Below the pieces are notes generated by a model. That model had not been told where the DNA came from and made no database searches. It saw only the letters and a list, made by a program, of their open reading frames with translations. 64,000 bases of DNA from NCBI GenBank assembly GCA_000091205.1, contig AP006491.2; one strand, 5' to 3'. The translations under genes and the position numbers were made by a program. How positions within the stretch are numbered: the first letter of the stretch is position 1; each line of letters starts with the position of its first letter. The stretch comes from Cyanidioschyzon merolae. Its lineage: Eukaryota. This document shows positions 1-60,644 of this stretch, piece by piece.

Positions 1-702
1 TGAGCGAGGTGACGAGCCGCGGAGCCGACATTGAAGCTTTTCGGGAGTCCATGGAAGGTCCGCGTTGCTCATTGGGATACGCTGTGGGAAGAGTACACCA
101 AGCGCCGGTGGGCTCGTCTGCGTAAGAATCTGTATTGTGGTAAGCAACGTGCATTTGCCAACTTTTTCAATGCGTTGAGCGCCCTCAAGGAGAATGAAAG
201 TCAGAGGCTCGTCGTAGCGTACGGAGCAGAGCGCTGGGCGTCCAAAAAAGGGACTACACCAGCTCCGTCGACAAGAACGTACAAGGAGTGCGCACGGCGT
301 TTCGCTACGATACCTGTAGACGAGTTCCGAACATCGTATACACACCACGAACTGGGGTGTACGCATCACAGAGTGGAGATGGAAACGTGCCAGAGGAGTC
401 CTGAGGATATAAAAAAATACGGAGCGCTGATGGAGGGGCAAATGGAAAGGAGGGCGAAATTTAGCGGATTGCTTGCATTAGTAAGTACACTCAATGATGG
501 CAAGAAACGGATGGAATTCGTGAACAGAGACTTTCACGCAGTGATCAATGTAAGATGTGCGGTAATGGAGAAAAGGCCTCGATACTGGACACGAGAGAAC
601 TTTGTTGGACAACCTCTCAAAGTGGAACTATATAAGAAAAAGCTGGAAGCAGTAATGGGTGGCCGGTCCAAAAAAACTGGGAGGCGTCAGCACATCAGTT
701 AG
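1..702 (+). CDS. TnpB-like (Fanzor-type) RuvC nuclease, copy A, 5'-truncated by window edge. It reads in frame 3 to nt 121, has a 58-nt intron at 122-179, then frame 1 from 180 to 702 (stop).
   Basis: C-terminal half has TnpB hallmarks: '[20 protein letters not shown]' (TSQ.C..CG-like zinc finger region) and '[20 protein letters not shown]' (RuvC-III D.NAA.NI-like motif). It is ~97% identical to the 54355-55347(-) ORF. The upstream frame ([20 protein letters not shown]...) matches the C-terminus of the 55253-56173(-) ORF. Confidence 0.6.
122..179 (+). other. Candidate spliceosomal intron (58 nt) in Fanzor-like gene copy A.
   Basis: Donor G|GTAAGA at 122, polypyrimidine stretch CTTTTTC, acceptor TTGAG| at 179. 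Phase-2 junction GC|C joins the upstream frame to the downstream RuvC-II/Zn/RuvC-III frame exactly. The upstream frame stops at 123-125 if unspliced. Confidence 0.5.
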
Positions 703-752
703 AGACGATTTGTCTAGGGCGCGTTCGCCGCCACTGCTGAACACCGTCGGCG
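600..752 (+). ncRNA. Candidate omega-RNA (reRNA) scaffold region of Fanzor copy A (ORF 3' end to element terminus).
   Basis: In TnpB/Fanzor systems the guide RNA is encoded at the element's 3' end. This segment is conserved even in the otherwise degenerate copy C. Confidence 0.25.
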
Positions 753-878
753 TCGTTCGACTTTTGCAAAGTGTTCGGTATCGGTGTCGGTGACGGTGTC
801 GGTGCGGTGTGCGTTTCAGTTGCTGCCCTGCGCTTTCGAGCATCAGCTTATATAACTCTGTGCACACGTGAACTGCCA

Positions 879-1820
879 ATGGCTGAGACTTGCTCATTTC
901 GCGGATACTTGAAGGGCCATGGAAACTGGGTAACGGCACTCGCCACGCCTCCGGACTCCGTAGACACACTGGTTTCGGTTTCTCGCGATAAGACCCTGAT
1001 CTGGTGGGAACTCACCGGCGAGGAGGGCGACTACGGGCGCCCGCGGAAGGCCCTACACGGCCATAACCACTTCATAAGCGATGTGTGTCTCAGCTCAGAT
1101 GGCCAGTTTGCGTTGACGTCTTCTTGGGACAAGGAGTTGCGGCTCTGGGATCTGCAGCTTGGTGAGTCGGTCCGACGTTTCGTCGGGCACCGCAAAGATG
1201 TGCTCTCTGTGGCGTTCAGCCCGGACAACCGCCAAATAGTTTCGGCTTCACGTGATCGCACGATAAAGATGTGGAACATTTTGGGCCAGTGCAAGTATGA
1301 GATCGTGGAAGACTCGCATACCGCATGGATTAGTTGCGTGCGGCTATCGCCGTCTCCGGCGGTTCCGTGTTTTGTTTCGTGCGGCTGGGATAAGCTGGTG
1401 AAGGTCTGGGATCTGGCCACCTGCCAGTTAAAGTTTAATCTGGTCGGTCATACTGGCTACCTCAACTGCGTCACCATCTCACCAGACGGAAGTTTGTGCG
1501 CCAGCGGCGGACGTGACGGCTCGGTGATGCTCTGGGACCTACAGCAGGGGCAGCACCTGCACACACTCGAGGGAACCGAGGAGATCTATGCGCTCTGCTT
1601 CTCTCCGAGCCGCTACTGGCTATGTGCTGCAACTAGCAGCTCCGTGAAGATCTGGGATCTCGAAACCAAGTCCGTGGTGGAGAACCTGCGTGATGAATCG
1701 TTCTTCGGCCCAAAGACGGCCCAAGCGCCACCGTGTATCTGCATGGCGTGGTCTTCGGATGGTGCAACGCTGTTCTGTGGACACACCGATAATCTCATTC
1801 GCGTTTGGGCTGTCATCTAG
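879..1820 (+). CDS. RACK1: RACK1 (guanine nucleotide-binding protein beta-subunit-like, WD40). Start taken at internal Met 'MAETCSF' within ORF 771-1820.
   Basis: Seven WD40 repeats with characteristic RACK1 strings: '[32 protein letters not shown]', '[34 protein letters not shown]', '[18 protein letters not shown]'. ~313 aa. Confidence 0.9.
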
Positions 1821-8829: not shown

Positions 8830-9165
8830 CGCTGCGCTGCGCGTTTGCATCGGGTGCTGATCCTCGAGCCGACGCCCTCTGTGGTATAGAAAAGCTGTTC
8901 TTGCTCAATGAAGTATCTGCTCCAGCGGCTAAGTTCCCAAGGCGGATGATTAGGTTAGGTACTAGGCACACACGACAGGACGTACGAAACGACCAGAATA
9001 TCCGAGAAGAAGTATAGGTAATGGAACTTGGAGGTAGGGCGTTTGATAGATACTCCACCTCGCACTGAAAAAATAACACAAAAAAGTTTGAAAAGAAAAA
9101 TGCGCATCATCGGAGAACGCTGGCACAAGTAAACGTTTTGTCCATGAAAAACATCCGGTGCTGAT
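8830..9165 (+). repeat. Interspersed repeat family R1, copy B.
   Basis: 'CCTCGAGCCGACGCCCTCTGTGGTAT...GTACGAAACGACCAGAATATCCGAGAAGAAGTATAGGTAATGGAACTTGGAGG...CACTGAAAAAATAACACAAAAAAGTTTGAAAAGAAAAATGCGCATCATCGGAGAACGC' aligns to the copies at 2918, 16030, 39520(-) and 57590. Confidence 0.55.
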
Positions 9166-11605
9166 GCGCGTCGCCACGTGCGCCAATGCATGCATGCGGG
9201 CGCCGCGGGAGGCTCTCGCCAGGCTCGGGAGCGCGCCCCCATGTGTCAGGTGTTGGCGCTGATCGGATCGAGTCACCGGCGTATGCGTGGGTGCGTGCGT
9301 GTGCGTGTCTGTATGTGGATGAGTATGGAGGTTGCAGATGGTGCCGCTTGCTGCCGATGAAGCATTCGCTGGAATATCCTTGTGGCGTCGTTGCAGCTGA
9401 CGTGTTATTTTCGCTACTTATCAGTTAGCGCACGGCAGCGTAGAACGTGGTCATTTTGGCGTTCGAGAGCCCGCTCGAAGCGGTGTACAGGAAGCGCAGT
9501 TGAGCTTGTGAGACGGGAACGTCTATGTTAGTCCAATGTTGCTGACCTGGTTGTCGTTCTGGATGCGGTTGTGCTGTGCGGGAAGCGCTTCGTGCCATTG
9601 CCGGCTCATCCCGAATTCGGCTGGGACCGGTGCGTGGTACGTGGATGTATGCTTTGCATGCCATCAAGACTGAAGGATTTCGCACTTGCCATCTCCTGTC
9701 GAGGCTTTTTTAGGTCGTCTGCAACCAGCTGAACGTTGACTGTGTGTAGGCGTCTCAGCGCGGATGGTTTTTTTTGATCCGTTATGCGCAATCTCATGGC
9801 CAAGTTGTTCGGGCGCTGGGCAGGCGCCGACACATCAGCGTGTCCAGCATGGGGACAGGCGCCTGGAGCAGGTTCGCCATCCGATTGGTCACCCGTTGGA
9901 CTGCTGCACCCTATGGTTTCTACAGGAAGATGAATCCAGGGCTGAATGAACGTAGAGTCCATCGAAGCTGACCAGCGGTCTCTCGCCCGACTTCAGACTC
10001 CAATCCTGTATCCGAAGATAATATCTGGATCGATGGAGCGATCTTGCAGCCTCGGAAAACTCAGCGCAGACCGTGAACACTCGCGGTATACCTGCATTGC
10101 CCCGCAGCAGCATGCGCATCCCGCGCTCGGGCAGTGCAAATGAAGTAGACTCGGTATTCAGTGGGAACATGGTTGTCGCCAGACATTTGTGCAACGCCGC
10201 CCGTATGCATACCTGGACGGTAGGATTGCCCGAGCAGTTTCCGTCGCAGGAAGCGTGCGAGGCATACGTGCAGCGTGGCTGGACAGGGTCCCGGGCGGGC
10301 GGCCTCTGCTGCAGGGTGAGTCTGGAACGACGCTTCTCGTAACGCTCAAGCGCATCGTGCTGTCGATTCGCGTCAGGGATCAGACGATCGCATGAAGCAT
10401 ATGAACAGTGGGAGTCTTGGAAGCGTTTGTGGGCGCACGACCTCCGAATTGAGCCCTGCTGCTGCTATCCTTTGTATTGAACGCTGTACTGTCCGGGATT
10501 TCAGGCCTTTTTCGTGCGCCGCGTCATGTGCTGGGTGTAGCCGTGCGCGACGCGTACGCGGCGGTCCTGACGCGCTGCAGCACTACGAGGTTAGAGGCGC
10601 TCGACTTTATTGTGTTTCACTTTCGCTGCGTCGATGCGAATGGTACTGCGCATTGCGTAGGAGGAGATCGAATTCACGATGCAGTGTACCGTATAGATTG
10701 TGGACGCATCGCCTATAGGATATATATACTTGTCTGAGCAATGCACGGAGGACCGCATTCTTCATTTAGGTCAGTCATACCATACTAGTCAGATTGATGA
10801 GGAACACTGAAAGAAACAAGTAGATGCGCTCTGTGTCAGAAATTGGTATTCTTAAAGATCGCTTGAAGTCGATAGTAGAAAACGACCTGTTCAGCAAGTC
10901 ATGAAGAGCAAAAGCGACAATAATAGCCATCATGGGCGTCTCTGTTTCTCAACTGCTCTTTCGTGTCGTCCTGTAAACACTGGGATACAGTCGCAAAAAG
11001 CGAGTCCAGTTACATGTACGACCATCTTCCACCGAAATCGCAACTAGCACAGAGTCTCTGGAACTCAGCGATCGGTACGAGGCACCGCATCGTCTGTTTG
11101 TTTCTCCAGTGGATGAGACTTGTTTCGGAAGGCACGGTCGGAGTGTATAACGATATTCCCGGAGAAGGGAGCCCGTTGTACGTACGATCCAAGTCGAAGA
11201 GAACGACCACATCATCATTTGTTCTGGATGGAGTGGATTCATGTGTTGGCATCCGTTTCACTCGAACAGGAGGCGCATACAACAGCATCAATCGCTTTGC
11301 TGAATGATTGAAGACGTTTCCCTGACACCTGGCGAGGTCCTTCTATTCGACAACGTGGCACTTCACCATTCCCTTTGCGGTCGAGCTTTTTTCTCTTCTA
11401 TCTGGTAGAACTGCTTTTCATTCCTCCGTACGCTGCATGATTCAATCCCATCGAATAAGTGTTTTTCTATCGTGAAACGTAGTGATCGCTCCAGTGGGCG
11501 AATCCCTGAAGAGTGTTTACCACGGTGACAAAATGAGGAACGTTTCGTCTTTCTTCCGCAAGCCCTTCTCGCTCAGGGAAGGTCCTCACCTAATGCCATA
11601 AACAA

Positions 11606-12010
11606 GTGCGTTCGTTTTTGAAGGACAAAAACCCAAGGGAAAGGCATGCACATGTTAGTCAGGGATCCTGGCGGGTCGATGTCGCGGGCTACCAGGAAAA
11701 ACGACAAAATTCTCTTCTCGCCTACCATCGAGCGAAGATGCGCAAGTATCCGAGAAGAATAGGGGATATAGGCAATGAAACGTACTTGCCCGAAAGTATG
11801 ACGACGAGACTGCAGTGGCACAGAGGGCACGAATTCGAGGACTCCTTTCATCGGTGAGTTCCACCAGCGGCAATAAACGCATGGAGTTCGTGAACCGAGA
11901 CTTTAACACCGCCATCAATATCAGACGATGTGTGGTGCTGAAAATTAGGACCGACCGGCTGACGAGAGCGAATCTCCTGGGCTAGCCCCTCAGATTCGAA
12001 GTGCACACGG
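11606..12010 (+). pseudogene. Degenerate remnant of a Fanzor/TnpB-like gene (RuvC-II to RuvC-III region only, stop-interrupted).
   Basis: Translation gives 'RVDVAGYQEKR' (cf. '[11 protein letters not shown]') and '[49 protein letters not shown]' (cf. copy A '[49 protein letters not shown]'). It lies in a low-GC island at 10.7-12.1 kb. Confidence 0.5.
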
Positions 12011-12374
12011 CGAAGCTGCAGCCGAGAGCAGGCGACCGGTTCGAAAAGGCTGGTGACGCGTCTGCGTATCGGTGGATACATGCGCATTCAATATTTGTAC
12101 AGCTTTGTGCTTTTTTAGGACGATCTGAACAATTAGATATCCTAAATGGGCCGCAAAGCATCCATTGCGAGTGATGGAAACAGCATCAGCGACAAAACTA
12201 CATCTAATGATTTCTAAATAGATCTTATCAAACTAAACGAACAAAACGATCCTTGGCCTCATCAGGTTCCTAGATGCATCATGGACGCCCCCCGCCACGC
12301 GCAATCTTTCCCGCGTTTTTCCGCTTCGCATTGGAGCTGCAGAGACGGCACCGAGTACTTGCACAGAGGAAGCC

Positions 12375-14294
12375 ATGTCACTCTCCGTGCAGCGCATCCA
12401 CGAGCTATGGTTAGAGGAGTTGCAGGGATTGGGCGCCGCCCCGGACCATCCTACAGAACCGGTAAAATTCTTGCACAGCATCCAACTCCCTAATCGAGCG
12501 ACGATTCCGCGCCTGGTCTGCCGCAACGGGCGCTGGCTGCTGCTTAGTCAGGAGAGGCAGCGTCTGCAGCTATTGGCCGGAACTCTTGTTCGCATTCGTG
12601 GTATGGTGCAGCACCACGGTGAAGAACAATACTGCCCTTGGGGCACCGTCAACGAGTACACCGCGACGTTTTCCTGTGGTTTCGCCCCAGAACTGGGGCC
12701 ACTCGAAACCGTGACGCATGACCAGCTCGCGTCCGAGACGCCTGAAACGAACTGCTGGGTGGCGCGACGCCCGCTTTTTCTCGAGCCCGTGCCGGGCGAT
12801 CGCTTCTATTCGTTCGACGAGTTTCTGGTCAGTTCGTCAAAGGGCGTCGGCGACGAGGCGGCACTCATCGACATTCTCGCAGATGATACTGCTAACAGCA
12901 ACGAAAGCGGTAATGAAAGCGTTGAGCGCACCGAATGTCGTCAGTGCCCAAATGCGACACACGGAGGCCAAGTGCAGTTCAGCAGCAACGGCTGCAGTCG
13001 CGCTAGCGGCATGCCGAGTGAGGCGACGACCTTGGCGGCCCAGAGTAGGCAGGCCGCGTCCGTTGTCGTGTACACATATGGCAACATGTCTGAGCACTCC
13101 AAGCTGAATGAGATCGTGGAGGCCATTGGTTTCTTGGAACTCCGCGACGGTTCCCAGCTTTCCGGATGCCTGGATGATCGTCGCGATACTGCAGACTCGG
13201 ACATTTGCACTGACATAGAGCAGCAGCTCGTTGTTCACGCGCTTCGAGTCGAATCCGCGGCTCGAGTACGTGTCGAAACGGGTGACGGATCCACGATGAA
13301 CCAGATAGCTGTGTCCCGTGTTGACGAAGGAAAACTCGCAGATCCGTACTGGCGCCTGCAGTCCTTCTTGAACAAGTTCCTCTTCCGTGACCGTGATCAT
13401 CTCGCGGCGTCGTATCTTGTCTATACCTTGATCGGATCGCGAGGACCCCGACCAGCCACACGAATTGTGCTCCAACTGAGCTTGCCGCGAGACACGGACT
13501 CCATAGCGGCAAAGCGCTTCGCTCGGCGCCTGTATCGCGTGCTGGCGATGCTGAACGTATGCTGCCAACGTCTACGCGTCTCGGTGGCGGCACTCAATGG
13601 GAGCTCCTGGACGCCGCACCAGCGTGCCGGGGAAGACCGACTGGAGCCTACGGTGTTGCAATTGCCCCGCGAAGCTGCCTTGGTCGTTGATGAAACCTAT
13701 CTCGAGTCCAGCGGTGGAAGCTTGAACCAAACAGGTGTACAGAATATGCGAACACTCGCTGATGTACTCGGTAGCGGGACCATTCGGTATCCCTACGCTT
13801 ACACGGAGGGGCTGCTTTTCGAGGTTGACTGGTCCATAGTCCTGCTTACGATTGGACGCGGCCTGGTTCCTCAGGCTATGCTGCACGCTGCGCACACCAT
13901 CAAGCGTGTGCAGCTGGATGCATCCGTCTTGGATGCAGACGACGCCGGGCTCGAGAGCAATGCGCATTCGCTGCGCGACCTGCTCCCAGTGTCGGATATT
14001 GTTGCGTCCCGCGAGGCGCTGGCGTGCATACGGCATCGTGCATGGCCGACTATTCCCGATGATGTGGCTTCTTTCATCGAGAGCGATTTCGTCCGTTTGC
14101 GCCAAGAAGCGAGAACCCGATGCCTGCAAAACATTGATGGTCCGGCAGCACCAGACGCCGAAGCCCTCGACACCATGCTGCGCCTGGCTATCTTGGAGTC
14201 TCGAGCCCGCGGGGAGCACCAAGTCTCTAGGGAGCGTTGGGAACAGATCAGGGCTATTGAGCAGGAGCGACACCAACGTGTTTCTGGCTCATAA
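12375..14294 (+). CDS. MCMBP: MCM-binding protein (MCMBP).
   Basis: Collinear similarity to MCMBP: 'SYLVYTLIGSRG' (cf. EYLILHLISTVY), 'LQLPREAALVVDETYLESSGGSLNQTGVQNMRTLADVL' (cf. [36 protein letters not shown]), 'YAYTEGLLFEVDWSIVLLTIGRGLVP', and C-terminal 'SRERWEQIRAIEQERHQR' (cf. SRERWLRAKQLESLRRTR). Confidence 0.8.
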   Translation: MSLSVQRIHELWLEELQGLGAAPDHPTEPVKFLHSIQLPNRATIPRLVCRNGRWLLLSQERQRLQLLAGTLVRIRGMVQHHGEEQYCPWGTVNEYTATFSCGFAPELGPLETVTHDQLASETPETNCWVARRPLFLEPVPGDRFYSFDEFLVSSSKGVGDEAALIDILADDTANSNESGNESVERTECRQCPNATHGGQVQFSSNGCSRASGMPSEATTLAAQSRQAASVVVYTYGNMSEHSKLNEIVEAIGFLELRDGSQLSGCLDDRRDTADSDICTDIEQQLVVHALRVESAARVRVETGDGSTMNQIAVSRVDEGKLADPYWRLQSFLNKFLFRDRDHLAASYLVYTLIGSRGPRPATRIVLQLSLPRDTDSIAAKRFARRLYRVLAMLNVCCQRLRVSVAALNGSSWTPHQRAGEDRLEPTVLQLPREAALVVDETYLESSGGSLNQTGVQNMRTLADVLGSGTIRYPYAYTEGLLFEVDWSIVLLTIGRGLVPQAMLHAAHTIKRVQLDASVLDADDAGLESNAHSLRDLLPVSDIVASREALACIRHRAWPTIPDDVASFIESDFVRLRQEARTRCLQNIDGPAAPDAEALDTMLRLAILESRARGEHQVSRERWEQIRAIEQERHQRVSGS

Positions 14295-17724: not shown

Positions 17725-20700
17725 TTTCCAGGATCTCTTGCGCAAGTATTCTAAGGATAAGGTGTGACCTGGCACGAATCCGTGCCCGCTCAGGGTCGCG
17801 GTTGCATCGGCGGGGACTTGGCGTCTTGTAGTAGTTACAACGTAAAGCAGTGAATTCTGGAATACCCGTACCAGCACGCCCTAACTGCTTTCAGGTAGGT
17901 ATTCATCAAAACAAATGTTTCCTGTAGATACGAGACAGGTCGCCGGACGACTGAATAATGACCATGCTGGCTGGCGAAAAGCGCCATGCTTGAAAAATGC
18001 AGTCATTCTACGGTCAGCGGATGGATAAGCCACGTCTCTCCTGCTCCTCATTCTTAACGTCGTGCACCTGAAACGGTTTTTGTCAAACTCTATTGCAGGA
18101 CGCTCTCCTCGTCAATCGATGCGTTGTTTAGGAAATACCACGAGAAGAGCCACAAGCAGTGCATTCTCCATTCCGTTGGTACGAGCGTTGATCAAGAGAC
18201 CCGAATGGATGCAGAAAACAGCGCGCGTCTATGGGAGCGAATCCCGTGTTGATCAACGCACTGTCGACTCGAGACTGTTACGCGAACGTGCACGACATGA
18301 GGACAGACATTCGTCTCACTCGACGAAACCTCGTTCGGGGGAAACGTCAGACCTTTGTATGGGCACTCAGAGAGGAGCAATTCGGTGTTCTTTAGAAAGA
18401 GAAAAGGGATAAGACGAGAATGTCAGCCCTGGTGACGATTCGTTCGTATGGTAGGCCCCACAAAAAGCCCACTGGACAAGAGCTTCGAAAATCCATTTTT
18501 CGTTGAAACGCTCCGAGCATATACCTATTGATATTCTTTCGCCCTGCTCGTGGATTACGTCATTTCGTATCATTCAAAAGTGGTCAAGTGGTAAGCGACT
18601 GAGATTCATGTTGAGCTGCTCTTCGCGCCAGTCAGTTCTCCCAGGTTTCATGGAGTCCTGGACGTCTTTCCCTTTTGTCCAACGCGACTTGGACGCTCAC
18701 ATATCTGTAGACGGGTCACTTGCATCCGTGACACTGTTCTTCAGCACGTTACTCTCTAGTTTCAACAATTCTGGAACACACTGCTCCTCCTCTGCTCATG
18801 CTGGGCAAGGTGCTGTTCGTTTCGTGGGCGCGCTCGCGACCGAGAACATGACAAAAAAGTACCCGAAAGATAGTAGATATCCACATGCATGGGAAAGGCG
18901 AGCCTCTGTGCTACCGTTCACCCAGTACACCTGAATCCCCTGGAAGAAAAAGATATGATGTAGAGTGACCACATCCATGGCATCCTGCCGATTAAAGAGA
19001 ACGAAGAAGGCTATTGAGAAGGAACCACGAGACAATGAATTGAAAGATCCTTCCGTAAATGGAACCTGGAAGCTCAGGAAGGAGAAACTGTTGAAGCGGA
19101 AACATTGGACCAAAAAACCTGTCGAATCCTCTGCCTTGAAAATCATCAACAGGAAGCATCTGTCGTTAGGATCTGGGACGTCGTTAGAGATCGTGTAGCC
19201 TCTCACTCGAGGAAGGAGTCGCGCATAGTTTCCCTCGTCATGAAACACCGCGTCAAGCAGTTGTTCGAGGGAGTTCCGCATGCATAGCTGCCGTCTGCCC
19301 ACAATTCTACCGGAATTTCTCGATCAGATCTCTGTACGATATTCAAACCATTGCTCGTGACAGATCATCCAACAAGGCCTGATCATTGGATCAGAGATTT
19401 CCGCAGAGAAACACATACATACATACATCCACAAACGCTTCCCAGAAAAACTTGACGTGTTGCCGCGCTTCAAAAACGTCGGCAGGGCAAGTACCAAAAA
19501 AGAATCAAACTATCCAACTTCAAAACCCACATGTAGGTCCAGCGCTTCGCAATCTGCACTCGGTAAGCCTTGTATACTGAACTCTGTGGTCAACGAGAGT
19601 GGAGACCGATGGAAGGAATTTTTGAGGTGCCGCGGGAGGCGGATGACAAGCCCCTGGCCGAGGAGATTGAAAAGGTCGTGCGTTCGGAGCTTATGTCGCA
19701 AGGAGAGCAAGACTAAACCCAGATTGTCCCAGCTCGTTGTATTGCCATTGGCGTCGGACTAGTCGACGTCGAATCCGAAAGATGGCCGGGGACACCAGGC
19801 TGCATTCCTTGCATCTTGCGCGAAGACGATTCCCTGAACAGCACCCTCAGGAACAGAGCAGACGTTCTCTCCGAATCGGGCGCCCTGGCCTCCTCAAAAA
19901 AGCGTATGCGATGCAGTCTCCATAGGTGACATTCTGGCCTATCCCATCAGGGTCGTGAGTCATGCGCTGTCCTGTATGGTGTCTCTAGTGAGCTACGGCT
20001 GCTCTCCGCACGCAAGTGTGAAGTATTCGAACCAGCGCACGAAGCGCACTGGCGTTGTTCGTACATGTTCTCCCGTTTTATTCATCGACAAACTGGAAAG
20101 AATATTTCGGGGACTCTACAGACAGACGGAATACCGAGGTGCAGGTACACCACGAAACCTACGCCGCACTCGAGTAACGAGACACATTTTCAACCGGCCC
20201 AAGTGGATACAGATAAAAACGGTAGAATATTCGTGGATTCCGCTTTGCAGGGCGTTGTCGTCATCGCTGTATCTCTGAATGAAGAGCACAGAGCCAAAGT
20301 CGTGGACAGGAAGCGGTTGAACCTGATCAGTTTTTTGAAGGCTCAGTATCATCGGAATTCGGGCATGCTAGGTGCCAGGACACCAACGAACAAGTGGAAT
20401 GGAGTGACGGGGTCAGGACCGAAATCGACGCACTAAGCACCGTATTGAGCAGAAGGGGATGCTTTCGAAGCGTCGTTCAGAGACTATTGGAGCGTCCAAA
20501 TGACTCATATGGATGACGTTTGGCAGAGGTACACGAAAGTCACGCTGATGACGCCAACTGTTCCGGTTGTTTGGAGCTCCGCGACGTGCTTTCAGCAACT
20601 GGGTCAGTACGTTGGAAATAGAAACGGCGTACAAGTCGGGTATTTGGATTTATTCCATGGCGATAAATACGCAGTTCAGCGCATAGCTGCGCTTATACTC

Positions 20701-21523
20701 CTTCAACGTGAGCGCACAACGAGTAACCGATTCCATTCTATACAATTCCCATCGAAGCAATCAGGAAGACATCCACACGTCACGAGCACGGGTGCCTGCT
20801 GAAACTGGTAGACAAGTCGCGCATGAAACAGAGCAGAACGTACGATATGGAGTCCGACCAGTTGACCAAACATCAGATGACGGTACAATCGAAAGTGAGA
20901 GGTTCGCTATGGTATGGTTCCAACGGCGAAAAGGCGCGCAAACTCTTTCCCCACCCGGTCTTGAAGGTCTCGATCGACATCCGCAAATCTGGACTACACC
21001 CGAAGGTTCCAGCGGTAAAGTTCCGCGCGAACCTGCAAGCGAATCATCTTGTACTCCATATGGACATCGTGCTGAAACGCTGAAGAATTCCACTGAGATA
21101 AAGCGTTGACCTGGGGGCTGCGGGCACTGGATTCCCATCTGGAGCAACGCACTCATATGGTACAGTTCAGCAATTCATCAAGGTAAGTGCGCCGAATGGA
21201 TCTGCTTCTGGGACGGTTTCCACGGGCAACTGGTGATCCATCATTGTGTTCCAGTATTCAGTATGATTGAGAATACGACGTAAACACTGTTGGAGCACAA
21301 CGCTTGAGGGCGCTCGCTGCTCCACGTGCCCAAACGCCACCAAGGAGTAGCGAGCAGCAGCAAGCATCATGCCCGTACGAGTGTGGTGTGCAGGGCACTC
21401 CTTTTGTCTGCGGATATAGCGCTTTTCATGGTTGTGGACAGGAAAATCTCACTAGATTTGTACGCCGGAGCAATGACCGGGGAAGAGAACTCAGCTTCTC
21501 CGAAGATGGGGTCCCGTTCCAAT

Positions 21524-37027: not shown

Positions 37028-37124
37028 GAGACTCACTCCGCAACGGAACAGGCCTTTGTGCACAACCCAGACTTCCAGGATTCCGCAGTGTGAACAAGCA
37101 ACGTCGGGTTCAGCAGCGCTCAAA

Positions 37125-39519: not shown

Positions 39520-39900
39520 TTCGCGCACGCGTGATCGATTTTTTTTCATGGACAAAACGTTAACTTAGGGCAGCGTACTCCGATTATGCGCATTTTTCTT
39601 TTGTTACTTTTTTTTTTTGTGTTTTTTCAGTGCGAGGTGAGGTATTCATCAACCGCCTACCTTCATGTTACATTACCTATACTTCGTCTCGGATATTCTG
39701 GTCGTTTCATACGTCCTATCGTGTGCCTAGTGCCTGGCGAAAGCGACAGCAATAGCGCCTATAGCGCCGGTGCGGTCGCTGCACGGAGACAGAACGGCGT
39801 TGCCGTACCACAAAGGGCGTCGGCTCGAGGCGTGGTTCACTCGACGTAGAATCGGGTCTCGTCGTCAGTTTGTGCTCGGAGAGTCTGCGGATGCAGGCTT
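39520..39900 (-). repeat. Interspersed repeat family R1, copy D (inverted orientation).
   Basis: The reverse complement of 39560-39720 reads 'AGGACGTATGAAACGACCAGAATATCCGAGACGAAGTATAGGTAATGTAACATGAAGGTAGGCGGTTGATGAATACCTCACCTCGCACTGAAAAAA...', matching copies B and E. Confidence 0.55.
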
Positions 39901-47125: not shown

Positions 47126-48640
47126 GCACAGGCAGTTTCTTCAGTGGAAGCGTGCCAACTAGTGTCGATCAGCTCGAGCTGGCGAGAAGCGCGCGCTTAT
47201 GCTCGTTTACCCGCCACGGTGCGGCTGGGAATATGCGCGCGCGCGCGCGCGCAGGGGAAGCGCTTTCGAGGTTCGTACTCTCCGCAGCACTTGCATCCAC
47301 ATAAAGTGGAGCGGGTCCACTAACACAAGGATACACGCTAAAGTTTTGGTTTCTCCGCAGAGTCATGAAAACCAGCGTTTCCTGCATTCTTATTTGCGTA
47401 CTTTCCTCTCTGTTCTCTTATATCCGGGTTTAAGAAAGCGGTCGTCCTTGGATTTCCAGCTCCGAGCCTAGCAGTCGAAAGATATTGATCGCAGCTTTAG
47501 AGTTACGAGCTCAATGCTTGCTGTTGCTGTCGACGCATCTCATACAGAGCGAAAAGGTCCGTTCTACGCTTGGCTTGTCATTTTCAGCTTCGCAGTATAC
47601 ATCGTCGGTGCGCGCTTCCGAGTGGTGACCCTTGATGGTGGACATGCGTTCCCATGTATCGGTCATATCACCCTCTTCGGGCGCTGCCCATTTGGCACGC
47701 AAAGAGTTGATGCACCGCTCGGTACATGCAACTGACGTGTATAGAGGGCTTCGCTCGATACCCGCCGCTGTTTCTGGGCCAAGTGCTGTACTGAACGATC
47801 CAGGACATGTTGTGAGCGATCTCCGCAGCGAGAAGTCTACGTGCTAGACGAGCAAGTGCACGCTGTACCACTTGATTCAGAAGTTGCGAAGATCGACGTT
47901 CGCCATGATGCGACAGGTACCTCTGGAACATTAGGGATGCAGAAAAAGCCGGAGACTTTCTATGCGTCTATGCTCCGTCTGAGCAAAAGCGGCTGCGGAC
48001 GCCCCACCTAAAGTGATTACTGCAATGACTAGCGTCTGTATCCAACAGACTTATCCAGGCATACGAGAGAGCCGAACGCCTCTGAGAGCCTATCGCATGA
48101 GATGTATCAAGCAGCTGTGGAATACTTCTTCGTCGATTGCCTCAAACAGAATAGGATTTGGTATTCGAACGAGATTGATCATTAGCTCACGTGAGTATTC
48201 CAATGTATGGTTAGCATGAACGAATGAGCAAGTCGTCGAGGAACGACGACATGGTTTGTCCCTCGTCCATCAAATGCGCACAATGACACGCCATTGAGCG
48301 GCCTCGAAACAGAAAGATCGAAAACTTGAAGAATTCGTGATTTGAGCATGCAACACGAACGTAAAACAAAGGAATAGATGCTTTCACATATGATTTGGAT
48401 AATGATATCGGTTACTTTACGAGGGCTTGTTCGAGGGCATCGCGAATTATCGTGATTTCAGTGACGTTGCGATTTCCAGCTGTAAAGTATCGAAAGCGTC
48501 ACTCCGAATAAACAATCGAGAATCGTTAAACTAGCTATGATTCCGTAACCACTTTTGCTCCACACTGAGTTTAAAGACTGTACATCCAACCAAAAAATTC
48601 GCAACAGAAATCGAAAGCCACCTGCAGCGCGGGCACCTCA

Positions 48641-53188: not shown

Positions 53189-54304
53189 TCACTCTGTTTC
53201 CTCCGTGCCGTGCTCGTTGCTGACCGGCTCGGCGTCTCGCACGCGAATGCGCTTAGCTCGATCGTTAATCTCGCAGATTTGCGCGGTGAACTTGTCTCCT
53301 GGTTTGATCGATTGCAGGGTGCGCTGCTTGTTCTGCCCCCAAAGATCGGAAACATGCACAAAGGCATCCACTTCTGAGCCGATGTCTACGAAAGCGCCAA
53401 AGTTCGTGACTCTGCGCACAGTGCCCTCGACGGTTTCGTCGAGCTGATAAGAACCCACACGGCGCCGGTTCTCAGAGTCGGCGTAAACGAGAATGCGACG
53501 TCCATCAGCTGTCTCAGTGGGGGTATACAGATTTCGTGCGCTGGAGGTGTTCCTGCCCTGCGAGCGCTGCTGCCCCGGTGGAAGGAACGAAAGGGAAAGT
53601 CTCCGCTTTTCCAGATCTATGAACTTCACGTAGACGGTAACCTCATCGCCGCGAGTCACAAAGCTCTCGGGATTCTCAACGTACTCCCGCGAGAAATCAC
53701 GAATATGAACAAGGCCATCGAAGGGTATGAACTTTTTGCGCTCGCCCCAGGTGTTTGGTAATGCACCGGCCGTGTCAGCGGATGCCGCCTCCTGCTCCAT
53801 CGCATTCAGTTCAGATGCACCCTGTGCACTCGTTTCCGCAAGGCCATCGCTGGAGGCGTAAAATGAGGAGCTGGAATCCTCAGCGTTGTCTACCTCGTAG
53901 AAAACACCGCAGTCCACGAAAGCTCCGTAGCTTACAACGCCACACACCGTACCGCGAAGTTCTTGACCCGGCTGCAAATCTGTAAGCTTGTAGGTTAGCG
54001 GGCGCCGACGCATCGTTGAGGCAGTGCGGCGACTTGCAGACGGGGTGCGACGGGGGCCGCTACCCTCGCGCCGCGTGCGGCGGCGATAGCTATCTGGACC
54101 AAAACGCATTTCCTGCGAGAACATTCCCTCCTGCGCGTCAGCGCTCATAGGCTCTGCGGTCGTGAAGGGCGTTGATTCAGCAGCCACACCGGCGTCGAGC
54201 TTCGAAACACCTTCCGACCCACCCGCAGGTGTTGAATCACTGTTCACAGTTGGTTCCATCTTCTCTTCTGGGAGCTCCGCCGAGGCCATCGTCCAAGTGT
54301 CCAT
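53189..54304 (-). CDS. Protein with two S1 RNA-binding domains (start at 'MDTWTMASAEL'; the upstream part of ORF 53189-54529 runs into the transposon flank).
   Basis: S1 motifs 'GQELRGTVCGVVSYGAFVDCG' and 'VEGTVRRVTNFGAFVDIGSEVDAFVHVSDLW...IKPGDKFTAQICEIN'. Confidence 0.6.
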   Translation of the reverse strand: MDTWTMASAELPEEKMEPTVNSDSTPAGGSEGVSKLDAGVAAESTPFTTAEPMSADAQEGMFSQEMRFGPDSYRRRTRREGSGPRRTPSASRRTASTMRRRPLTYKLTDLQPGQELRGTVCGVVSYGAFVDCGVFYEVDNAEDSSSSFYASSDGLAETSAQGASELNAMEQEAASADTAGALPNTWGERKKFIPFDGLVHIRDFSREYVENPESFVTRGDEVTVYVKFIDLEKRRLSLSFLPPGQQRSQGRNTSSARNLYTPTETADGRRILVYADSENRRRVGSYQLDETVEGTVRRVTNFGAFVDIGSEVDAFVHVSDLWGQNKQRTLQSIKPGDKFTAQICEINDRAKRIRVRDAEPVSNEHGTEETE

Positions 54305-54354
54305 ACGGAGCACAGCGCGTCCGGGAAGGGAAGCCCTCCTCAGTCCGAAGCGAT

Positions 54355-56173
54355 TCAGGGGCGCTCCCCAGAACACATCACAACGAGTGCGCACGCTGCT
54401 AATGCGAGAACGCGCACAAACCCCAGCCACCCGACACGCTGTGTATATAATAGGGACAAACATTTTGTCCGCAGCGTAAGCACTATATACTGAACTGAAA
54501 GAAAGAGTTGGTAAACTTCGTTCACGCACCGCGCAGTGTCGTAGTCACCGGCCGAAATGAAGCTCGTAAGAAACGAATGAATGGAGGGCTGTAGCTCGCA
54601 CGGCCGGCGGCGGTGGCTCGCACGGCCGCCGACGGTGTTCAGCAGTGGCGGCGAACGCGCCTTAGACAAATCGTCTCCACCTGATGTGCAGACGCCTCCC
54701 AGTTTTTTGGACCGGCCACCCACTACTGCTTCCAGCTTTTTCTTATATAGTTCCACTTTGGTAGGTTGTCCAACAAAGTTCTCTCGTGTCCAGTCTGGAG
54801 GCCTTTTCTCCATTACCGCACATCTTACATTGATCACTGCGTGAAAGTCTCTGTTCACGAATTCCATCCGTTTCTTGCCATCATTGAGTGTACTTACTAA
54901 TGCAAGCAATCCTCTAAATTTCGCCCTCCTTTCCATTTGCCCCTCCATCAGCGCTCCGTATTTTTTTATATCCTCAGGACTCCTCTGGCACTTTTCCATC
55001 CCCACTCTGTGATGCGTACACCCCAGTTCGTGGTGTGTATACGATGTTCGGAACTCGTCTACAGGTATCGTAGCGAAACGCCGTGCGCACTCCTTGTACG
55101 TTCTTGTCGACGGAGCTGGTGTAGTCCCTTTTTTGGACGCCCAGCGCTCTGCTCCGTACGCTACGACGAGCCTCTGACTTTCATTCTCCTTGAGGGCGCT
55201 CAACGCATTGAAAAAGTTGGCAAATGCACGCAGCTTACCACAATACAGATTCTTACGCAGACGAGCCCACCGGCGCTTGGTGTACTCTTCCCACAGCGTA
55301 TCCCAATGAGCAACGCGGACCTTCCATGGACTCCCGAAAAGCTTCAAAGTCCGCTCCTTGACTCGTCACCTCGCTCAAAGCTTCTAGGTGATCCTTCATT
55401 CCTGAATTCCAGCTCTCGATTTTCTTCCCCGCATTCATGATTCCCGATTCTCGATAGTATCTAGCTCTCGAGAACCTCAATAGACGCATGTCTTTCTGAC
55501 GTAAACTACCGTCAGTACCATCTTCCGCACACTTCGGTGCTGCGATGGTGATGATATTTGTGTTTCCGGGGTCCGCGCCAACGACAAAGTCGATATCTTG
55601 CACTTTCTGCGTCGCAGGAGCCGCCTTGTTGTTATCTTCATGCTTCGTCGCGTCAACGACCAGGTCGTTATCCTCCACCTCCTGCATCGCAGGATTCGCC
55701 TTCTTCTTCTCTTCATGCTTCCCCGCGTCAACGACAAGGTCGTTATCCCCCACTTCCTGCGTCATAAGACCCGCCTCCTTCTCATTTCCTTCCTTCGCCG
55801 CGTCAACGAGAAAGTCATTATCCTCCAACTCGTGCGTCTCTGGATCCTCCTCTTTGTTTTCTTCGTTCTTGGTCACGGGCGTAGCCGAGGGCGGACCAGG
55901 ACGATCTGTCTTCAAGCGCCGATAGTGTACACACATGGCTACTCCATCGGTTTCGATCATCCCAGTGAATATCTTTTGTTTGCTCACTCTCAGGCGTTTG
56001 AAATTGAAGATGTTCTTTAAGTACGTCTCCCGGTTTTCACCGGAGAATTCTTCCCTGCTGACACTGAATTCGGGACTGATCTCCTTCATGATGCCGTAAA
56101 GGACTCTGGAGTCGATGGTCACAAAATGTGACTTGATATTGGACATCGGAATCACGTTAAAGCGCTTCCCCAT
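54355..56173 (-). CDS. TnpB-like (Fanzor-type) RuvC nuclease, copy B. Exon 1 is 56173-55257, the intron 55256-55199 and exon 2 55198-54355.
   Basis: RuvC-I '[18 protein letters not shown]', RuvC-II-region '[11 protein letters not shown]', zinc-finger region '[28 protein letters not shown]', RuvC-III '[20 protein letters not shown]'. The same GTAAGA/TTGAG intron as copy A joins the two ORFs. A 1-bp change in an A-run relative to copy A moves the stop from the 54676-equivalent to 54355. Confidence 0.6.
54628..54800 (-). ncRNA. Candidate omega-RNA scaffold region at the 3' end of Fanzor copy B.
   Basis: Same conserved 3' terminal block as copies A and C. The adjacent flank (54600-54627) would supply the guide if the element works like TnpB/Fanzor. 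Confidence 0.25.
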
Positions 56174-56199
56174 TAGGAAAGCCTTCCGTCTCTCCTACT

Positions 56200-57104
56200 C
56201 TTCATTTGTCTTTTCGCTCAGCTTCATCTCCGCTTCGCGTTCGAGCTCCGGGTCCAAGAACACAAAATACCGTACGACGATGCGATAGTATCTCCCCTGA
56301 TCCTTTTTCAACTCTGATATCTTTTCTGTTGGATTCACCAGCCCCAAGATTGCACGGCGCTCTTGTATAACCGAACGGATGAGGGAATTCTCATTTGTGC
56401 TCCTGCGTGACGTCTTCTTGTCGACAAATTCGACCTCATCTCCATTCTTACGATCTTTCGTAAAGCCATTGGTAATCGCCTATATTCATTTGAGAGAGCT
56501 GCCTGGGTAGAGTGCAAAAACGGCGCGTACCATGAAACGTTCGAGTTTCACGATCACGTGATTCTCCAGTTTCGTGATGTACTTCGTCGCCCCTTATATG
56601 TAAACATTCGAATCACCCCTGTATGGAGTACTGTTGAAGCTGTAGAGGGGATGTTTTTCGTAAAGGCCATGCACTAGCACATTTTCCCTCCGCGTTTCCG
56701 CTGTGCCAAGCATCAGGTGTCGAATAAATGTCTTACCGAAAAAATCGTCCGGAATCTCGACCGTTTCCAAGTGCGCCACGTTTTCGTACATCTCTCTCGC
56801 CAAATGCATCAGTCTTGACGACGCCTTGAAAATACTCATGGAGTACGAATCGAAACGTTTTTCGATAGCGTCTCACAAATTTTCCCTGTAAGGATGGTTG
56901 ATATGTTTAAGAAGACGGGCTTTCACCAGCATCTCGTCGAACAGTCGTCTTTCTTGCCGCCTTCGACTTAGGGCCTCCCCTTTTGCTTCTTCTTCTTTTC
57001 CTGTTCTTCTGGACTCGGCTCTGTTTTTTGTTTTTATTTCTGGCAGCAGGCGACCCTGGACCTACAGAATCGTCGACTTGCTTTTTCATAGCTTTTCTTT
57101 TCAT
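56200..57104 (-). pseudogene. N-terminal region of the copy B Fanzor gene (K/R-rich NLS-like segment plus putative WED-like domain), interrupted by in-frame stops.
   Basis: 'MKRKAMKKQ...RNKNKKQSRVQKNRKRRRSKRGGPKSK' (56907-57104). Downstream, '...FMVRAVFALYPGSSLK*I*AITNG...' is homologous to the continuous 164-aa ORF of copy C (62119-62613, 'FMIRVAFVLYPGIFREAMLAIIDG'). Confidence 0.4.
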
Positions 57105-57589
57105 TTTTTTTGTGTGAAAAAGAACGCTCTTTGAACCCTTCTATTATATACTGCGAGAAATCAATTGAATATGTTTACTTGAGGGTAGAGACACAATCGA
57201 ACTGGAAACTATGATTTGTTACGACTTCCACGCAAATACAGCTTGCCCGTTAGAACATCAAGAAAACGTGTCGTCACGGTCGCGTTTCTCTTCGAAGGCG
57301 ACAGATGCGTCGTGTCTCGTAAGTGCCATACTTGGAGATGCACGTATCGAGCGCGCCATACAGGAAAAAGGACAGTGACCTACGATTTACAAGAAACGAT
57401 ATAAAATTTTTTCCCGCTCTACGATAAGCGTTTAAGGGGAAATAGATCGCCGTACTATCGGAAGCTTATGTTCGAGGCGGAAGGTCCCGCGAGCCGGTCG
57501 AGTCTACCGGGCTAGAGCTCGGTATGCCTCTAAAGTGGCCGCTGCCGCTGCTGCCGCTGCTGCTGCAAGACCTGCGTAGCTCGTTCGCA

Positions 57590-58095
57590 ACGCATTTTAT
57601 CCTGAGACTATGCACAGGACGCTGCGTTGGGCCTCGCCCTGGTCGCAGTGGAATCCTAGTACAGCACTTCGCGCTGTCGCAGGTAGTAGGTCTGTCTGCG
57701 CATTTTGCATGTTCCCAGAATGACAAATAGCCCTGATTCCGGTTCAGGTGAATCATTCCTCGAGCGGACGCCCTTAGTGGTATGGCAAAGCCGTTCTGTC
57801 TCTGTACAGCACCTGCTTGAGCGGTATAAGCGCTACAGCGGGTGCTCACAACAGGCTCGGCGCTCGATAGAACATACGAAACGACCAGTATATCAGAGAG
57901 GTAGTATGGATAATGGGACTTGAGGACAGGTGCACTATGATCGAGATATCCCCGGAAGCCATCGTGCGTTCCGAATTCTGGGATGCATGGGCAATGCAAA
58001 CGTTCTTTCATCGAAAAGAAAAAAACGCTCCGGAGGCGGACTCGTCATCGAGACGCGCATCGCTCTGGATCGAATCTCCGGAAGGCGCTTCTGGG
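57590..58095 (+). repeat. Interspersed repeat family R1, copy E (longest, ~0.5 kb), abutting the 5' side of Fanzor element copy B.
   Basis: Aligns to copy C over its 5' half ('GCAGGTAGTAGGTCTGTCTGCGCA...CCCAGAATGACAA') and to copies A, B and D over its 3' half ('...ACGAAACGACCAGTATATCAGAGAGGTAGTATGGATAATGGGACTTGAGG...GAAAAGAAAAAAACGCTCCGGAGGCGGAC'). Confidence 0.55.
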
Positions 58096-58402: not shown

Positions 58403-59479
58403 GTGCTCTTTGGAATGACGTCAGGGATCGACGAGGCAGCAGCTGAGCTTCAGGGAAGTCTCTTTGGGGACGTCTCGCCTGCGATCGACACGCCGGGTGC
58501 GGCGCTTGCACGTTCGTACCCCGTCCGCATCACCGTTGTCGGAGCTGGTGACGTTGGCGTTGCTTGCGCCTATAATATTTTGACCCGAGATATTTGTAGT
58601 GAGCTGGTACTGGTGGACGTTCTCAAGGACAAACTCAAGGGTCAAGTTATGGACTTGCAGCATGGAGGTGCGTTCTACAGCACCCGCATCCGGGCTGCCG
58701 AGTCCTACGAGGATACAGCACATTCGGCAGTATGTATTATAACGGCAGGTGTGCGTCAGCGGCCCGGAGAAAGTCGTCTTGAGCTCATGGATCGCAATGC
58801 CGCATTGTTCAAAGGCATTATTCCGCCCCTGGTGCAGTATTCGCCGAACACAATCCTGTTGGTTGTGAGTAACCCCGTTGATCTATTGACACATCTAGCG
58901 TGGCAGATGAGTGGCTTGCCTCGCGAACGTGTGATTGGCTCAGGGACATATTTGGACTCTTCGCGTTTCCGCACACTTCTGGCGCAGCGGCTGGGCATCG
59001 ATACCGCTTCTGTCCAGGCCATGGTACTGGGCGAGCACGGAGACTCCTCGTTTGTGTACCGGAGTGGTATTACGGTTGGTGGCGTGCCGTTGCGAACATG
59101 CTTCGAGCGCATGACCGACGCTGCGAGCGCGTCCACAGCATTCTATGATCTGGTGAAAGGTGTCCATCAGCAAGTTGTAGCCGCGGCTTACGAGGTCATT
59201 AAGCTGAAAGGCTACACCAACTGGGCCATTGGCAGCGCTGTTGGAAGCATCGTTACAACGATTGTGCATGATCGGCGCAAAGTGCTGCCAATAACGACGC
59301 ATGCGGGCTCGTTGCGAGGCCTCGAGTCGGCGGATGTATTCTTGTCGTTGCCTTGTGTGCTAGGTCGGAATGGTGTCGTTGAAGTACTACAAATACTGCC
59401 GTTCATGGAAAGTGACGAGAAAGAAGACCTCCAATCCAGTATAGAGGCACTCCAGAGCACGCCGAAGAAAGCATCTTGA
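58403..59479 (+). CDS. L-lactate dehydrogenase (LDH/MDH superfamily, LDH-type motifs).
   Basis: 'ITVVGAGDVGVACAY' (GxGxxG), 'DVLKDKLKGQVMDLQHG', 'IITAGVRQRPGESRLELMDRN', 'LLVVSNPVD', 'GSGTYLDSSRFR', and 'LGEHGDSS' (the LDH-type GEHGDS rather than MDH GGHGDT). Confidence 0.85.
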   Translation: MLFGMTSGIDEAAAELQGSLFGDVSPAIDTPGAALARSYPVRITVVGAGDVGVACAYNILTRDICSELVLVDVLKDKLKGQVMDLQHGGAFYSTRIRAAESYEDTAHSAVCIITAGVRQRPGESRLELMDRNAALFKGIIPPLVQYSPNTILLVVSNPVDLLTHLAWQMSGLPRERVIGSGTYLDSSRFRTLLAQRLGIDTASVQAMVLGEHGDSSFVYRSGITVGGVPLRTCFERMTDAASASTAFYDLVKGVHQQVVAAAYEVIKLKGYTNWAIGSAVGSIVTTIVHDRRKVLPITTHAGSLRGLESADVFLSLPCVLGRNGVVEVLQILPFMESDEKEDLQSSIEALQSTPKKAS

Positions 59480-60644
59480 GCATGTTGCCTGTGCGTGGTA
59501 ACGCGTTGGATGCGGATCGTTTACAGGGACGTTAATCAAATGCCTCGTCGAAGTGCGGGCTCTGCACAAGCGTGCTCGGTCTGTACTCAAAATAAGCGGA
59601 TGGACAAGGAGGACTGAGATATGCTGGATACCTATGCCAAACTGGTAGGTCTTGGCAACGTACAAAAGGTGTGGAGGGGAGCGTCCGTAACCATCTCGGC
59701 GAGCTTGTTCCAAATGGACAGCATTGCTGAAGGACAAGGTGGCACCAGAATTGCAGCTGCAGAGTAGCGTTCGCCTACTATCATCATTGAAACCTGCTAG
59801 TCGTGTCATGGATACCGGACGTGATGGAGTTCGCATCCGCCACAGCGAACAAGGATCAAATCAACTGACTCAAAATTCTCCAAAGCGATGCGTGGATGAA
59901 AGCTGGCGAAAGTTGCGGGTCTGGTACGGCATAACGTACGCTTACCCGGATGCCGATATGCATCGCGCCTGGCCCGAGATACCCTGGTTCAGGTCAACCA
60001 TTCTAAACCGCAGGATAAAAGTATGCCATGATTTAACGTTCACTGATGTTGGCTGGACGGCATCGCAACGCTCCACGAACCTGGGCGCGGCGCCGAAGGC
60101 TTAGTTTCCGAGTATGACCGTGACAGACTTTGCTCTATGCGTACGGATCTGGAAAACACGAGCCGGAAGTGTGCACCAGCACGCATGGGCGACGAATAAA
60201 ACCCTTAAAGCGACGTACGAACAGTGACCTAACGATGCAAGTGGAACGAACCGAATACCCTGAGGAAGGTATGATGGCACAGCTTCTGCCTTGAGAGCGG
60301 GTGCACAAGCGCTTCAGTGCGGTAGAGGCGAAATCGTGCCGAAACGCCCGATTCGCGTCAGCGCTTCCAGTGACCAGGAATGTGCCTCCAGCTTCTCTGA
60401 CGTTCCTCTCGCGTCCCAGCAATTCTGGTACAAAGTTTCGCTCTATGCAGCACAGGCGCTGATGCAGCGCTCCTTCGGAAGCCCTGCCTTCCGCAAACTT
60501 GCACCGAAACGTTCCGTACGCAGCTATTGTGGTTATGCTTCAAAAGCAGAACGGTATTGCAGTGTCTTGGAAGCGTCGGCTCGAGCTTCTGAGGCCGAAA
60601 CGTCTCGGACGACCGCCGCACCCGACGACAACAAACATCTTTCA

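Follow-up and report, generated by a model that had tools for sequence, protein, structure and literature searches.

Orientation-specific placement of CMe-1A Fanzor1 elements beside host gene starts in Cyanidioschyzon merolae

A 64,000-nucleotide stretch of chromosome 9 from the red alga Cyanidioschyzon merolae 10D (hereafter 'the window', to which all positions refer unless another locus is named) carries several copies of a long repeat interspersed with host genes. The origin of this DNA is evident from five window-encoded proteins that match 10D proteins exactly (locus tags CMI284C-CMI288C); exact matches include RACK1, MCMBP and PsbO, and also a mitochondrial ribosomal protein S1 precursor (mt-RPS1), L-lactate dehydrogenase (LDH) and RPA30. 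By sequence, the repeats are copies of CMe-1A, a published family of Fanzor1 (TnpB-like) elements from this species. An inspection of the window by sequence alone, which we call the original prediction, had proposed that the 3ʹ ends of these elements sit just upstream of genes oriented in the same direction. Here we describe the elements and their neighbours, establish where the 3ʹ end of the family lies and evaluate its position relative to gene starts at many independent insertion sites.

CMe-1A has been described as a family of ~150 copies of ~3 kb that are ~80% identical to their consensus, in which most copies are dead, no transposase is present, terminal inverted repeats (TIRs) are lacking, and target-site duplications (TSDs) or target sites could not be defined (Bao & Jurka 2013, PMC3627910). 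The same report found the 5ʹ 635 bp to be common to a second repeat, TE-N2_CMe, which explains several short solo repeats in the window. The elements analysed here agree with that description: they measure ~3.3 kb, have a median pairwise identity of 81% and no TIRs, and their 5ʹ ~635-700 bp occur as solo modules. Three features are not part of the 2013 account of this otherwise known element, namely a terminal hairpin with two variants, alternative 5ʹ modules, and an orientation-specific placement by gene starts, the published description being silent on position relative to genes.

The element protein contains the RuvC-type motifs GADPG, VDEFRT and NRDF(N/H)A(A/V)IN. When the protein of the full-length window copy (copy B, below) is aligned with its metagenome homologues and with the intact relatives P0155 and P0152, GADPG, VDEFRT and NRDFNAAINI are invariant, and the RuvC-like D/E/D catalytic triad is retained in the family consensus. 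All copies in the window are pseudogenes, as are most members of this multicopy family. Searches of Pfam, NCBIfam and PDB with a single sequence and with an 8-sequence profile gave no significant match for the element protein, the sole profile hint being a weak similarity to PF07282 (Cas12f1-like TNB; E=0.23, 2 of 8 members), and an AlphaFold2 model built from a shallow alignment was unusable (mean pLDDT 37). Because the profile searches gave no independent confirmation, the assignment to Fanzor1 depends on the motifs and on agreement with the published family. A transposase of any kind was not found in the elements or in their 5ʹ modules. Subfamilies differ in these modules, of which there are several alternatives; one of them, present in the long elements of loci L030, L016 and L036, contains a fragment of an open reading frame (ORF) resembling a membrane steroid-reductase-like protein (PFGLLFEFVSYPNCIFEVLAWVG...), which may be a captured piece of a host gene.

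Two CMe-1A copies in the window have their 3ʹ ends directed at the start of a gene on the same strand. Copy A, the 3ʹ part of an element truncated by the window start, occupies 1..786 on the plus strand, with a C-terminal ORF at 31-702, and is followed by RACK1 (879..1820, +; WD40 domains; exact match to BAM80140). Copy B, a full-length pseudogene with five in-frame stops and a frameshift, occupies 54621..58023 on the minus strand; its 5ʹ module (57316-58023) is TE-N2_CMe-like, and an orthologous copy is found in locus L047. It is co-oriented with mt-RPS1 (53189..54463, -; 424 amino acids; S1 domains; exact match to BAM80155). The two copies are 97% identical over 1-752; the identity goes no further only because the tip of copy B is missing. 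As shown by repeat depth in independent loci, the last repeated base of copy A lies at ~778-786, so that the gap to the RACK1 ATG is 92-100 nt and not 127. The 3ʹ end of copy B lies at 54621-54627, which is 157-163 nt from the annotated mt-RPS1 ATG at 54463; the start at 54304 used previously has no record. The co-oriented arrangement proposed for these two loci therefore stands, with a revised element end at the first and a revised gene start at the second.

The third arrangement of this kind involves MCMBP (CMI288C; 12375..14294, +; Pfam MCM_bind; exact match to BAM80143). The repeat upstream of it had been taken for a remnant of the same element ending at ~12010. As judged by tblastn, repeat depth and copies in other loci, it belongs to a separate family of ~1.4 kb and spans 10637..12069 on the plus strand, co-oriented with MCMBP and ~305 nt from its ATG. 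Within it lies a relic of a Fanzor C-terminus (RuvC-III; 11797-12021) with the motif NRDFNTAINI. Further copies of this family are present in loci L022, L052, L057, L074, L076 and L077. Genes downstream of its 3ʹ ends are co-oriented in five cases and opposed in two, with larger gaps than those of CMe-1A, and the family was dropped as a replication set since its copies are too few.

Two other loci do not conform. Copy C (60622..~63700, -) is a diverged CMe-1A pseudogene that is ~76% identical to copies A and B and equally decayed, and its 3ʹ end faces the stop codon of LDH (58415..59479, +; Pfam Ldh_1_N and Ldh_1_C; exact match to BAM80156). LDH is thus convergent with copy C, whose 3ʹ end is 1142 nt from the stop codon at 59479, and divergent from copy B, whose 5ʹ end is 391 nt from the LDH ATG. 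A fifth, strongly decayed Fanzor-like relic (19021..21080, +), which went unrecognized before, was detected by tblastn with P0155 and P0152 (25-40% amino acid identity; ORFs fragmented) and probably represents a much older or a different Fanzor1 lineage. It sits in a gene-free stretch between PsbO and RPA30; the latter (23064-23957, -; BAM80145) is the next annotated gene and lies on the opposite strand, ~2 kb away. The original tally of three conforming loci in four accordingly becomes three in five, and the window alone is within chance expectation (at least three heads in four tosses has p=0.31).

Beyond the point at which the identity of copies A and B ends, the family extends for another ~26-42 nt as a 10-bp terminal hairpin, which occurs in two variants among 50 independent copies. 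Variant 1 (CGTCGTTCGA-CTT-TCGAACGGCG) has a predicted folding energy of -16.4 kcal/mol (z -4.2), and variant 2 (AACGTTTTTC-TTTT-GAAAGACGTT) has one of -13.7 kcal/mol (z -4.4). Past the hairpin, the consensus fades to an A-poor, GT-rich stretch, TG(K)TGTYGG, with the terminus ...CGTTTG(K)TG. Copy A carries a degenerate variant-1 hairpin (753-778), copy B carries none, and copy C has an intact variant-2 hairpin (~60627-60660; -19.1 kcal/mol, z -3.9). Variant 2 is located at Fanzor 3ʹ ends in 23 of 23 instances and variant 1 in 26 of 33, most of the others being at the 5ʹ edge of other elements. Because the hairpin is found almost exclusively at Fanzor 3ʹ ends, it belongs to the element, and the idea that it is a host promoter motif targeted by the element was rejected on these counts. 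No comparable hairpin was seen at the 5ʹ end. An RNAalifold analysis of the 3ʹ 275 nt of 38 copies gave only a weak consensus (-1.8 kcal/mol) with no convincing omega-RNA fold, leaving the terminal hairpin as the only robust structure; covariation is uninformative for this region because the copies decay neutrally.

Several observations concern the terminus itself. Extra variant-1 hairpins by the 5ʹ edge of some elements (L007:4510, L025:4343, L031:4433, L035:494 and L023:443) are suggestive of tandem or nested insertion, with one element placed directly behind the 3ʹ terminus of a pre-existing copy. Within each of two pairs of copies, identity is 97% over ~700 nt but the last 30-50 nt differ: in the pair 1-786 and 54621-55377 the hairpin is present in one and absent from the other, and loci L068 and L071 carry variant 1 and variant 2, respectively. 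Both pairs suggest gene conversion between copies or exchange of terminal modules. A 1-nt difference between copies A and B abolishes a stop codon in the latter, such that the C-terminal Fanzor ORF of copy B (54355-55347, -) runs past the element end into the upstream region of mt-RPS1; a like case is present in locus L094.

To survey insertion sites more widely, a metagenome scan with protein alignment was used, from which the best 80 of 279 candidate loci were taken with flanks of up to 10 kb. Wherever a contig overlaps the window, the two are 98-99.5% identical, and the loci therefore sample other regions of the same species' genome. Clustering of the 3ʹ flanks resolved 50 insertion sites with no homology to one another. 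Three fall in the window, and 44 of those elsewhere have a downstream gene. Genes were called as ORFs scored by a codon model trained on long ORFs, which recovered those annotated genes of the window that were checked by exact look-up. Element boundaries were set by repeat depth across independent ortholog groups; boundaries drawn from copy B alone were rejected for the 5ʹ side, since other subfamilies carry different 5ʹ modules. The null model assumes uniform insertion in random orientation into 150,617 bp of repeat-free intergenic DNA from 126 regions, and it predicts that 41-47% of the sites are co-oriented with the downstream gene and that 2% and 4.3% lie within 50 nt and 110 nt, respectively, of a co-oriented ATG.

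At the 44 sites outside the window, the downstream gene is co-oriented in 31 and opposed in 13 (p=0.0096), and the median gap between the last repeated base and the first ATG is 49 nt. Sixteen sites are no more than 50 nt upstream of a co-oriented first ATG, compared with 2% expected (binomial p=1e-16), and 23 (52%) are no more than 110 nt upstream, compared with 4.3% expected (p=2.5e-20). By contrast with these starts, stop codons are not faced by 3ʹ ends in excess (3/44 vs 4.7% expected). Three extra sites evaluated with the collection's own gene calls and Pfam are all co-oriented, with genes for a polyprenyl synthase, a PALP enzyme and Spt5, the hairpin being followed by a gap of ~64-75 nt in two cases. 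The 3ʹ end with its hairpin thus abuts the start of a same-strand gene in an orientation-specific fashion, at a median of ~45-50 nt from the first ATG, and the wider survey bears out, far above chance expectation, the enrichment that had been proposed from the few loci of the window.

The two ends of the element differ in this respect. Over all 47 sites, 25 of 33 3ʹ ends are within 110 nt of the ATG that they face, compared with 2 of 20 5ʹ ends (Fisher p=3e-6). The difference is also apparent at the 13 sites in divergent regions, where the 3ʹ end is this close in nine and the 5ʹ end in none. TE-N2-type 5ʹ ends have a sharp terminus shared with solo copies, and among the 8 listed the count within 110 nt is 0, the smallest distance to a facing ATG being 171 nt; a 5ʹ end is typically a few hundred nucleotides from the start of the neighbour that it faces. 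Because the 3ʹ and 5ʹ ends behave differently, compactness of the genome fails to explain the pattern. Where both neighbours were called, 13 sites are divergent, 5 are tandem co-oriented, 5 are tandem opposed and 3 are convergent. The copies thus reside preferentially in promoter-containing intergenic DNA, mostly between divergent genes, and the predominance of divergent over convergent sites implies that the co-orientation excess is in large part a consequence of residence in regions with promoters.

These numbers bear on the possibility that the apparent preference arises from chance together with the geometry of the genome, or artificially from ORF-based gene calls or misplaced boundaries. 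A window tally of just 3/5, the uncertainty of 5ʹ boundaries among subfamilies with varying modules and a first-ATG rule that shortens measured gaps would all be in keeping with such an origin. However, the observed 52% compares with 4% under the simulated null, 5ʹ ends return only 2/20 when measured to the first ATG in the same way, and the well-defined TE-N2-type 5ʹ ends give 0/8. Moreover, ten downstream ORFs carry Pfam domains, several of which start at the N-terminus, and independent gene calls agree. The survey largely refutes this explanation, which we consider very improbable.

Closeness could also have been acquired after insertion, if read-through from the element took over expression and the native promoter between element and ATG was later deleted. 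Such compaction would fit the age of the copies (median pairwise identity 81%), the loss of the terminal hairpin in 8 of 33 co-oriented copies, copy B among them, and the very short intergenic regions between divergent genes that are free of transposable elements (median 267 bp). Yet the 25 co-oriented sites with an intact hairpin are equally near the ATG, with a median gap of 41 nt, and gap size is uncorrelated with the divergence of the copy (rho 0.25, p=0.17), for which reason shrinkage of the gap with copy age was rejected. Deletions across the junction are therefore not the source of the closeness, and they would in addition need to have stopped exactly at the element end many times. We regard compaction as improbable.

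The genes that follow the element ends are mutually unrelated. Ten downstream ORFs scanned with Pfam are housekeeping genes and include those for KTI12, glutaredoxin, Tim17, SUMO, an enzyme of the aldehyde-dehydrogenase family, a DnaJ/zuotin protein, a CNOT4-like RING protein and a phycobilisome protein. Two are particularly informative. The start codon of KTI12 (L070:4590-4592) is 14 nt past the hairpin, and position 1 of the Pfam profile aligns to residue 1 of the protein. For the CNOT4-like gene, the sole in-frame ATG before the RING domain (L051:3046-3048) lies within the 3ʹ arm of the hairpin, where it arose by a change of GAACGG to GAATGG. Given the positions of these start codons, the transcripts of both genes must begin in or run through the element, which favours a contribution from outward transcription. 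Genes of the KTI12 and CNOT4-like type must have their 5ʹ leader, and very probably also their core promoter, inside the element, and more generally some host genes of C. merolae probably take a 5ʹ leader or promoter from a transposon, to the extent that gene and element coordinates can tell.

The interpretation to which we give precedence, although we consider the case for it evenly balanced, is that the promoter-proximal, orientation-specific position is tolerated because transcription leaves the 3ʹ end of the element, which would supply the leader and probably the core promoter of the adjacent gene. Insertions would land, or survive only, in short nucleosome-free DNA 5ʹ of genes, and an insertion so near a start codon would be tolerated only if the gene-facing end transcribes outward. 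Outward transcription would be expected of a TnpB/Fanzor 3ʹ end because the guide portion of the RNA is copied from the flank: the omega RNA of these systems is transcribed from the 3ʹ end of the transposon, with flanking DNA serving as the guide (Saito et al. 2023, PMC10432273). On this view, selection would remove copies in the opposite orientation or at the 3ʹ ends of genes. A bolder extension of this interpretation, which we offer tentatively and with some doubt, holds that dozens of unrelated housekeeping genes, in what is among the most compact of eukaryotic genomes, use the final ~100-200 bp of CMe-1A as a portable promoter or 5ʹ leader, by virtue of obligatory outward transcription of the guide RNA. 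Were it true, host gene expression would have co-opted, or would at least depend on, guide-RNA transcription by a Fanzor element, and live copies would possess guides matching host genes at their 5ʹ ends.

Several points weigh against tolerance through outward transcription. Conservation of the last 200 nt is no higher in gene-adjacent copies than in others and is lower than that of the element body, so that selection of the 3ʹ end as an exapted promoter finds no support. Orientation relative to neighbouring genes is not absolute, with tandem regions divided 5 co-oriented to 5 opposed, and 13 of the 44 sites (30%) face the 3ʹ end of a gene. No transcription start site is known for any endogenous C. 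merolae promoter (PMC12770821, 2025). The survey itself is confined to the best-matching candidate loci, its ORF-based gene calls use the first ATG and so shorten gaps, and some 5ʹ boundaries may have been placed too far inside the element owing to the variation of 5ʹ modules by subfamily.

A possible but rather unlikely alternative is that orientation-specific targeting takes place at integration, with a fixed polarity at gene 5ʹ ends and little role for selection. One variant would have the element insert into single-stranded non-template DNA at transcription bubbles or R-loops, in the way of hairpin-ended HUH-type elements. Consistent with targeting are intact termini whose median distance to the ATG is 41 nt, irrespective of copy age, a conserved subterminal 3ʹ hairpin combined with the lack of TIRs and TSDs, and the A-poor, GT-rich flank just past the hairpin, which hints at a preferred target. 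It is difficult to reconcile with the elements and 5ʹ modules being devoid of any detected transposase, with the 30% of sites that face gene 3ʹ ends and the even split in tandem regions, and with the failure to find a sharp target motif. The original prediction named read-through and a promoter-proximal insertion preference as possible drivers. The strong orientation-specific enrichment leaves both viable, and sequence data cannot separate the two.

It had further been suggested that a putative guide would derive from host promoter DNA. The idea of a guide RNA is drawn here by analogy with TnpB/Fanzor systems only (PMC10432273). With the true 3ʹ end ~30 nt beyond its earlier placement, any guide would start correspondingly later and would often fall not in the promoter but in the 5ʹ leader or the first codons of the host gene. 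The likeness of CMe-1A to the OMEGA systems of TnpB and Fanzor (IS200/IS605) lies in the RuvC D/E/D motifs of its protein; the differences are that the copies are pseudogenes, no TnpA partner was found, and the end consists of a hairpin followed by a GT-rich tail. Compared with IS200/IS605-type elements, the 3ʹ hairpin is present, whereas a Y1 (TnpA) transposase and a comparable 5ʹ hairpin were not found.

Published Fanzor descriptions (PMC3627910, PMC10432273) do not describe a positional bias toward host gene starts, and full-text literature searches, in part loose, found no report of Fanzor elements placed relative to such starts. A preference for promoter-proximal insertion is well known in other transposon classes. 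Insertions of Dictyostelium TRE5-A, yeast Ty3 and Tf1, and Drosophila P elements cluster just upstream of genes. For TRE5-A, a short characteristic distance and a fixed orientation are seen. Clustering of this kind is commonly read as a 'safe haven' strategy. All of these are retroelements or cut-and-paste transposons with known tethering factors, and several target genes transcribed by RNA polymerase III (Pol III). CMe-1A resembles them in its statistical excess close upstream of genes in a preferred orientation, but its targets are unrelated protein-coding genes transcribed by RNA polymerase II (Pol II), its carrier is a Fanzor element without a known transposase, and the gap can be zero.

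Likenesses to two other systems also deserve mention. Helitrons are characterized by a RepHel gene, 5ʹ-TC and CTRR-3ʹ termini, and a hairpin ~10 nt before the 3ʹ end. CMe-1A shares with Helitron/IS91 elements the lack of TIRs or TSDs, a subterminal 3ʹ hairpin and variable sequence beside one conserved end. It differs from Helitrons in that no RepHel/HUH gene was found, the terminus is ...CGTTTG(K)TG rather than CTRR, and the variable side is 5ʹ rather than 3ʹ. TldR proteins are reportedly TnpB-derived, RNA-guided regulators of transcription that are nuclease-dead and domesticated, with guides that are not derived from the flank. The parallel would be a TnpB-family protein whose guide matches a host promoter or gene 5ʹ end; in CMe-1A, by contrast, the triad is kept in the family consensus, and the family is multicopy and mostly dead.

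Fanzor and TnpB nucleases are studied intensely as genome editors, but the life of their host elements in eukaryotic genomes is largely unknown. The placement described here offers a testable link between outward transcription (of the guide) and tolerance of an element in a compact genome. It leads one to expect promoters or 5ʹ leaders of transposon origin at named genes of a model alga that can be transformed. The guide of any active copy would correspond to a host gene at its 5ʹ end, a point of relevance to the evolution of RNA-guided regulators from transposon nucleases.

The RACK1 locus of the sister genus Cyanidiococcus provides an empty site, in which PetC and RACK1 are separated by 491 bp without an element and the downstream synteny is conserved. 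Four metagenome loci (L086, L087, L088 and L090) contain a RACK1 coding sequence identical to that of the window joined to unrelated sequence at ~779-789. The junction is a GT-rich hexamer repeat, (GGTGNC)n, directly after copy A. The foreign sequence includes a TMA7 gene, a divergent gene and a ubiquitin-like fragment, and the RACK1 contigs (L086-L090) also end or switch at the next repeat (~3050-3150). These contigs are probably assembly chimeras formed at the hexamer repeat; alternatively, the junctions may mark a transcript 5ʹ end or a recombination hotspot.

The remaining repeats of the window include a solo TE-N2_CMe-like 5ʹ module at 8861..9154 (-), recognized by repeat comparison and of the sort described by Bao & Jurka, and further solo 5ʹ modules at 2919-3064 (-), 16109-16359 (-) and 39536-40101 (+). 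Scans with Rfam (gathering thresholds) and for tRNAs found no RNA genes in the window. Nearly identical paralogues of LDH are encoded on other chromosomes (BAM80408 and BAM79100). The order of protein accessions suggests that LDH is close to the last gene of chromosome 9. A subtelomeric position is probable for the right-hand part of the window and may account for the density of elements there. Another dispersed repeat family, unrelated to the Fanzor coding part, is represented at 15133-15354, 15673-15956 and 48300-48558, the two window copies being inverted and 66% identical, and has matches in 8-13 other loci. Finally, the segments 35110-35620 and 36823-37033 comprise CTG/GAT-rich tandem repeats of ~100 nt (four copies, 89-95% identical) and a 100-nt tandem duplication that lies directly upstream of the PheRS alpha gene (ATG 37125).

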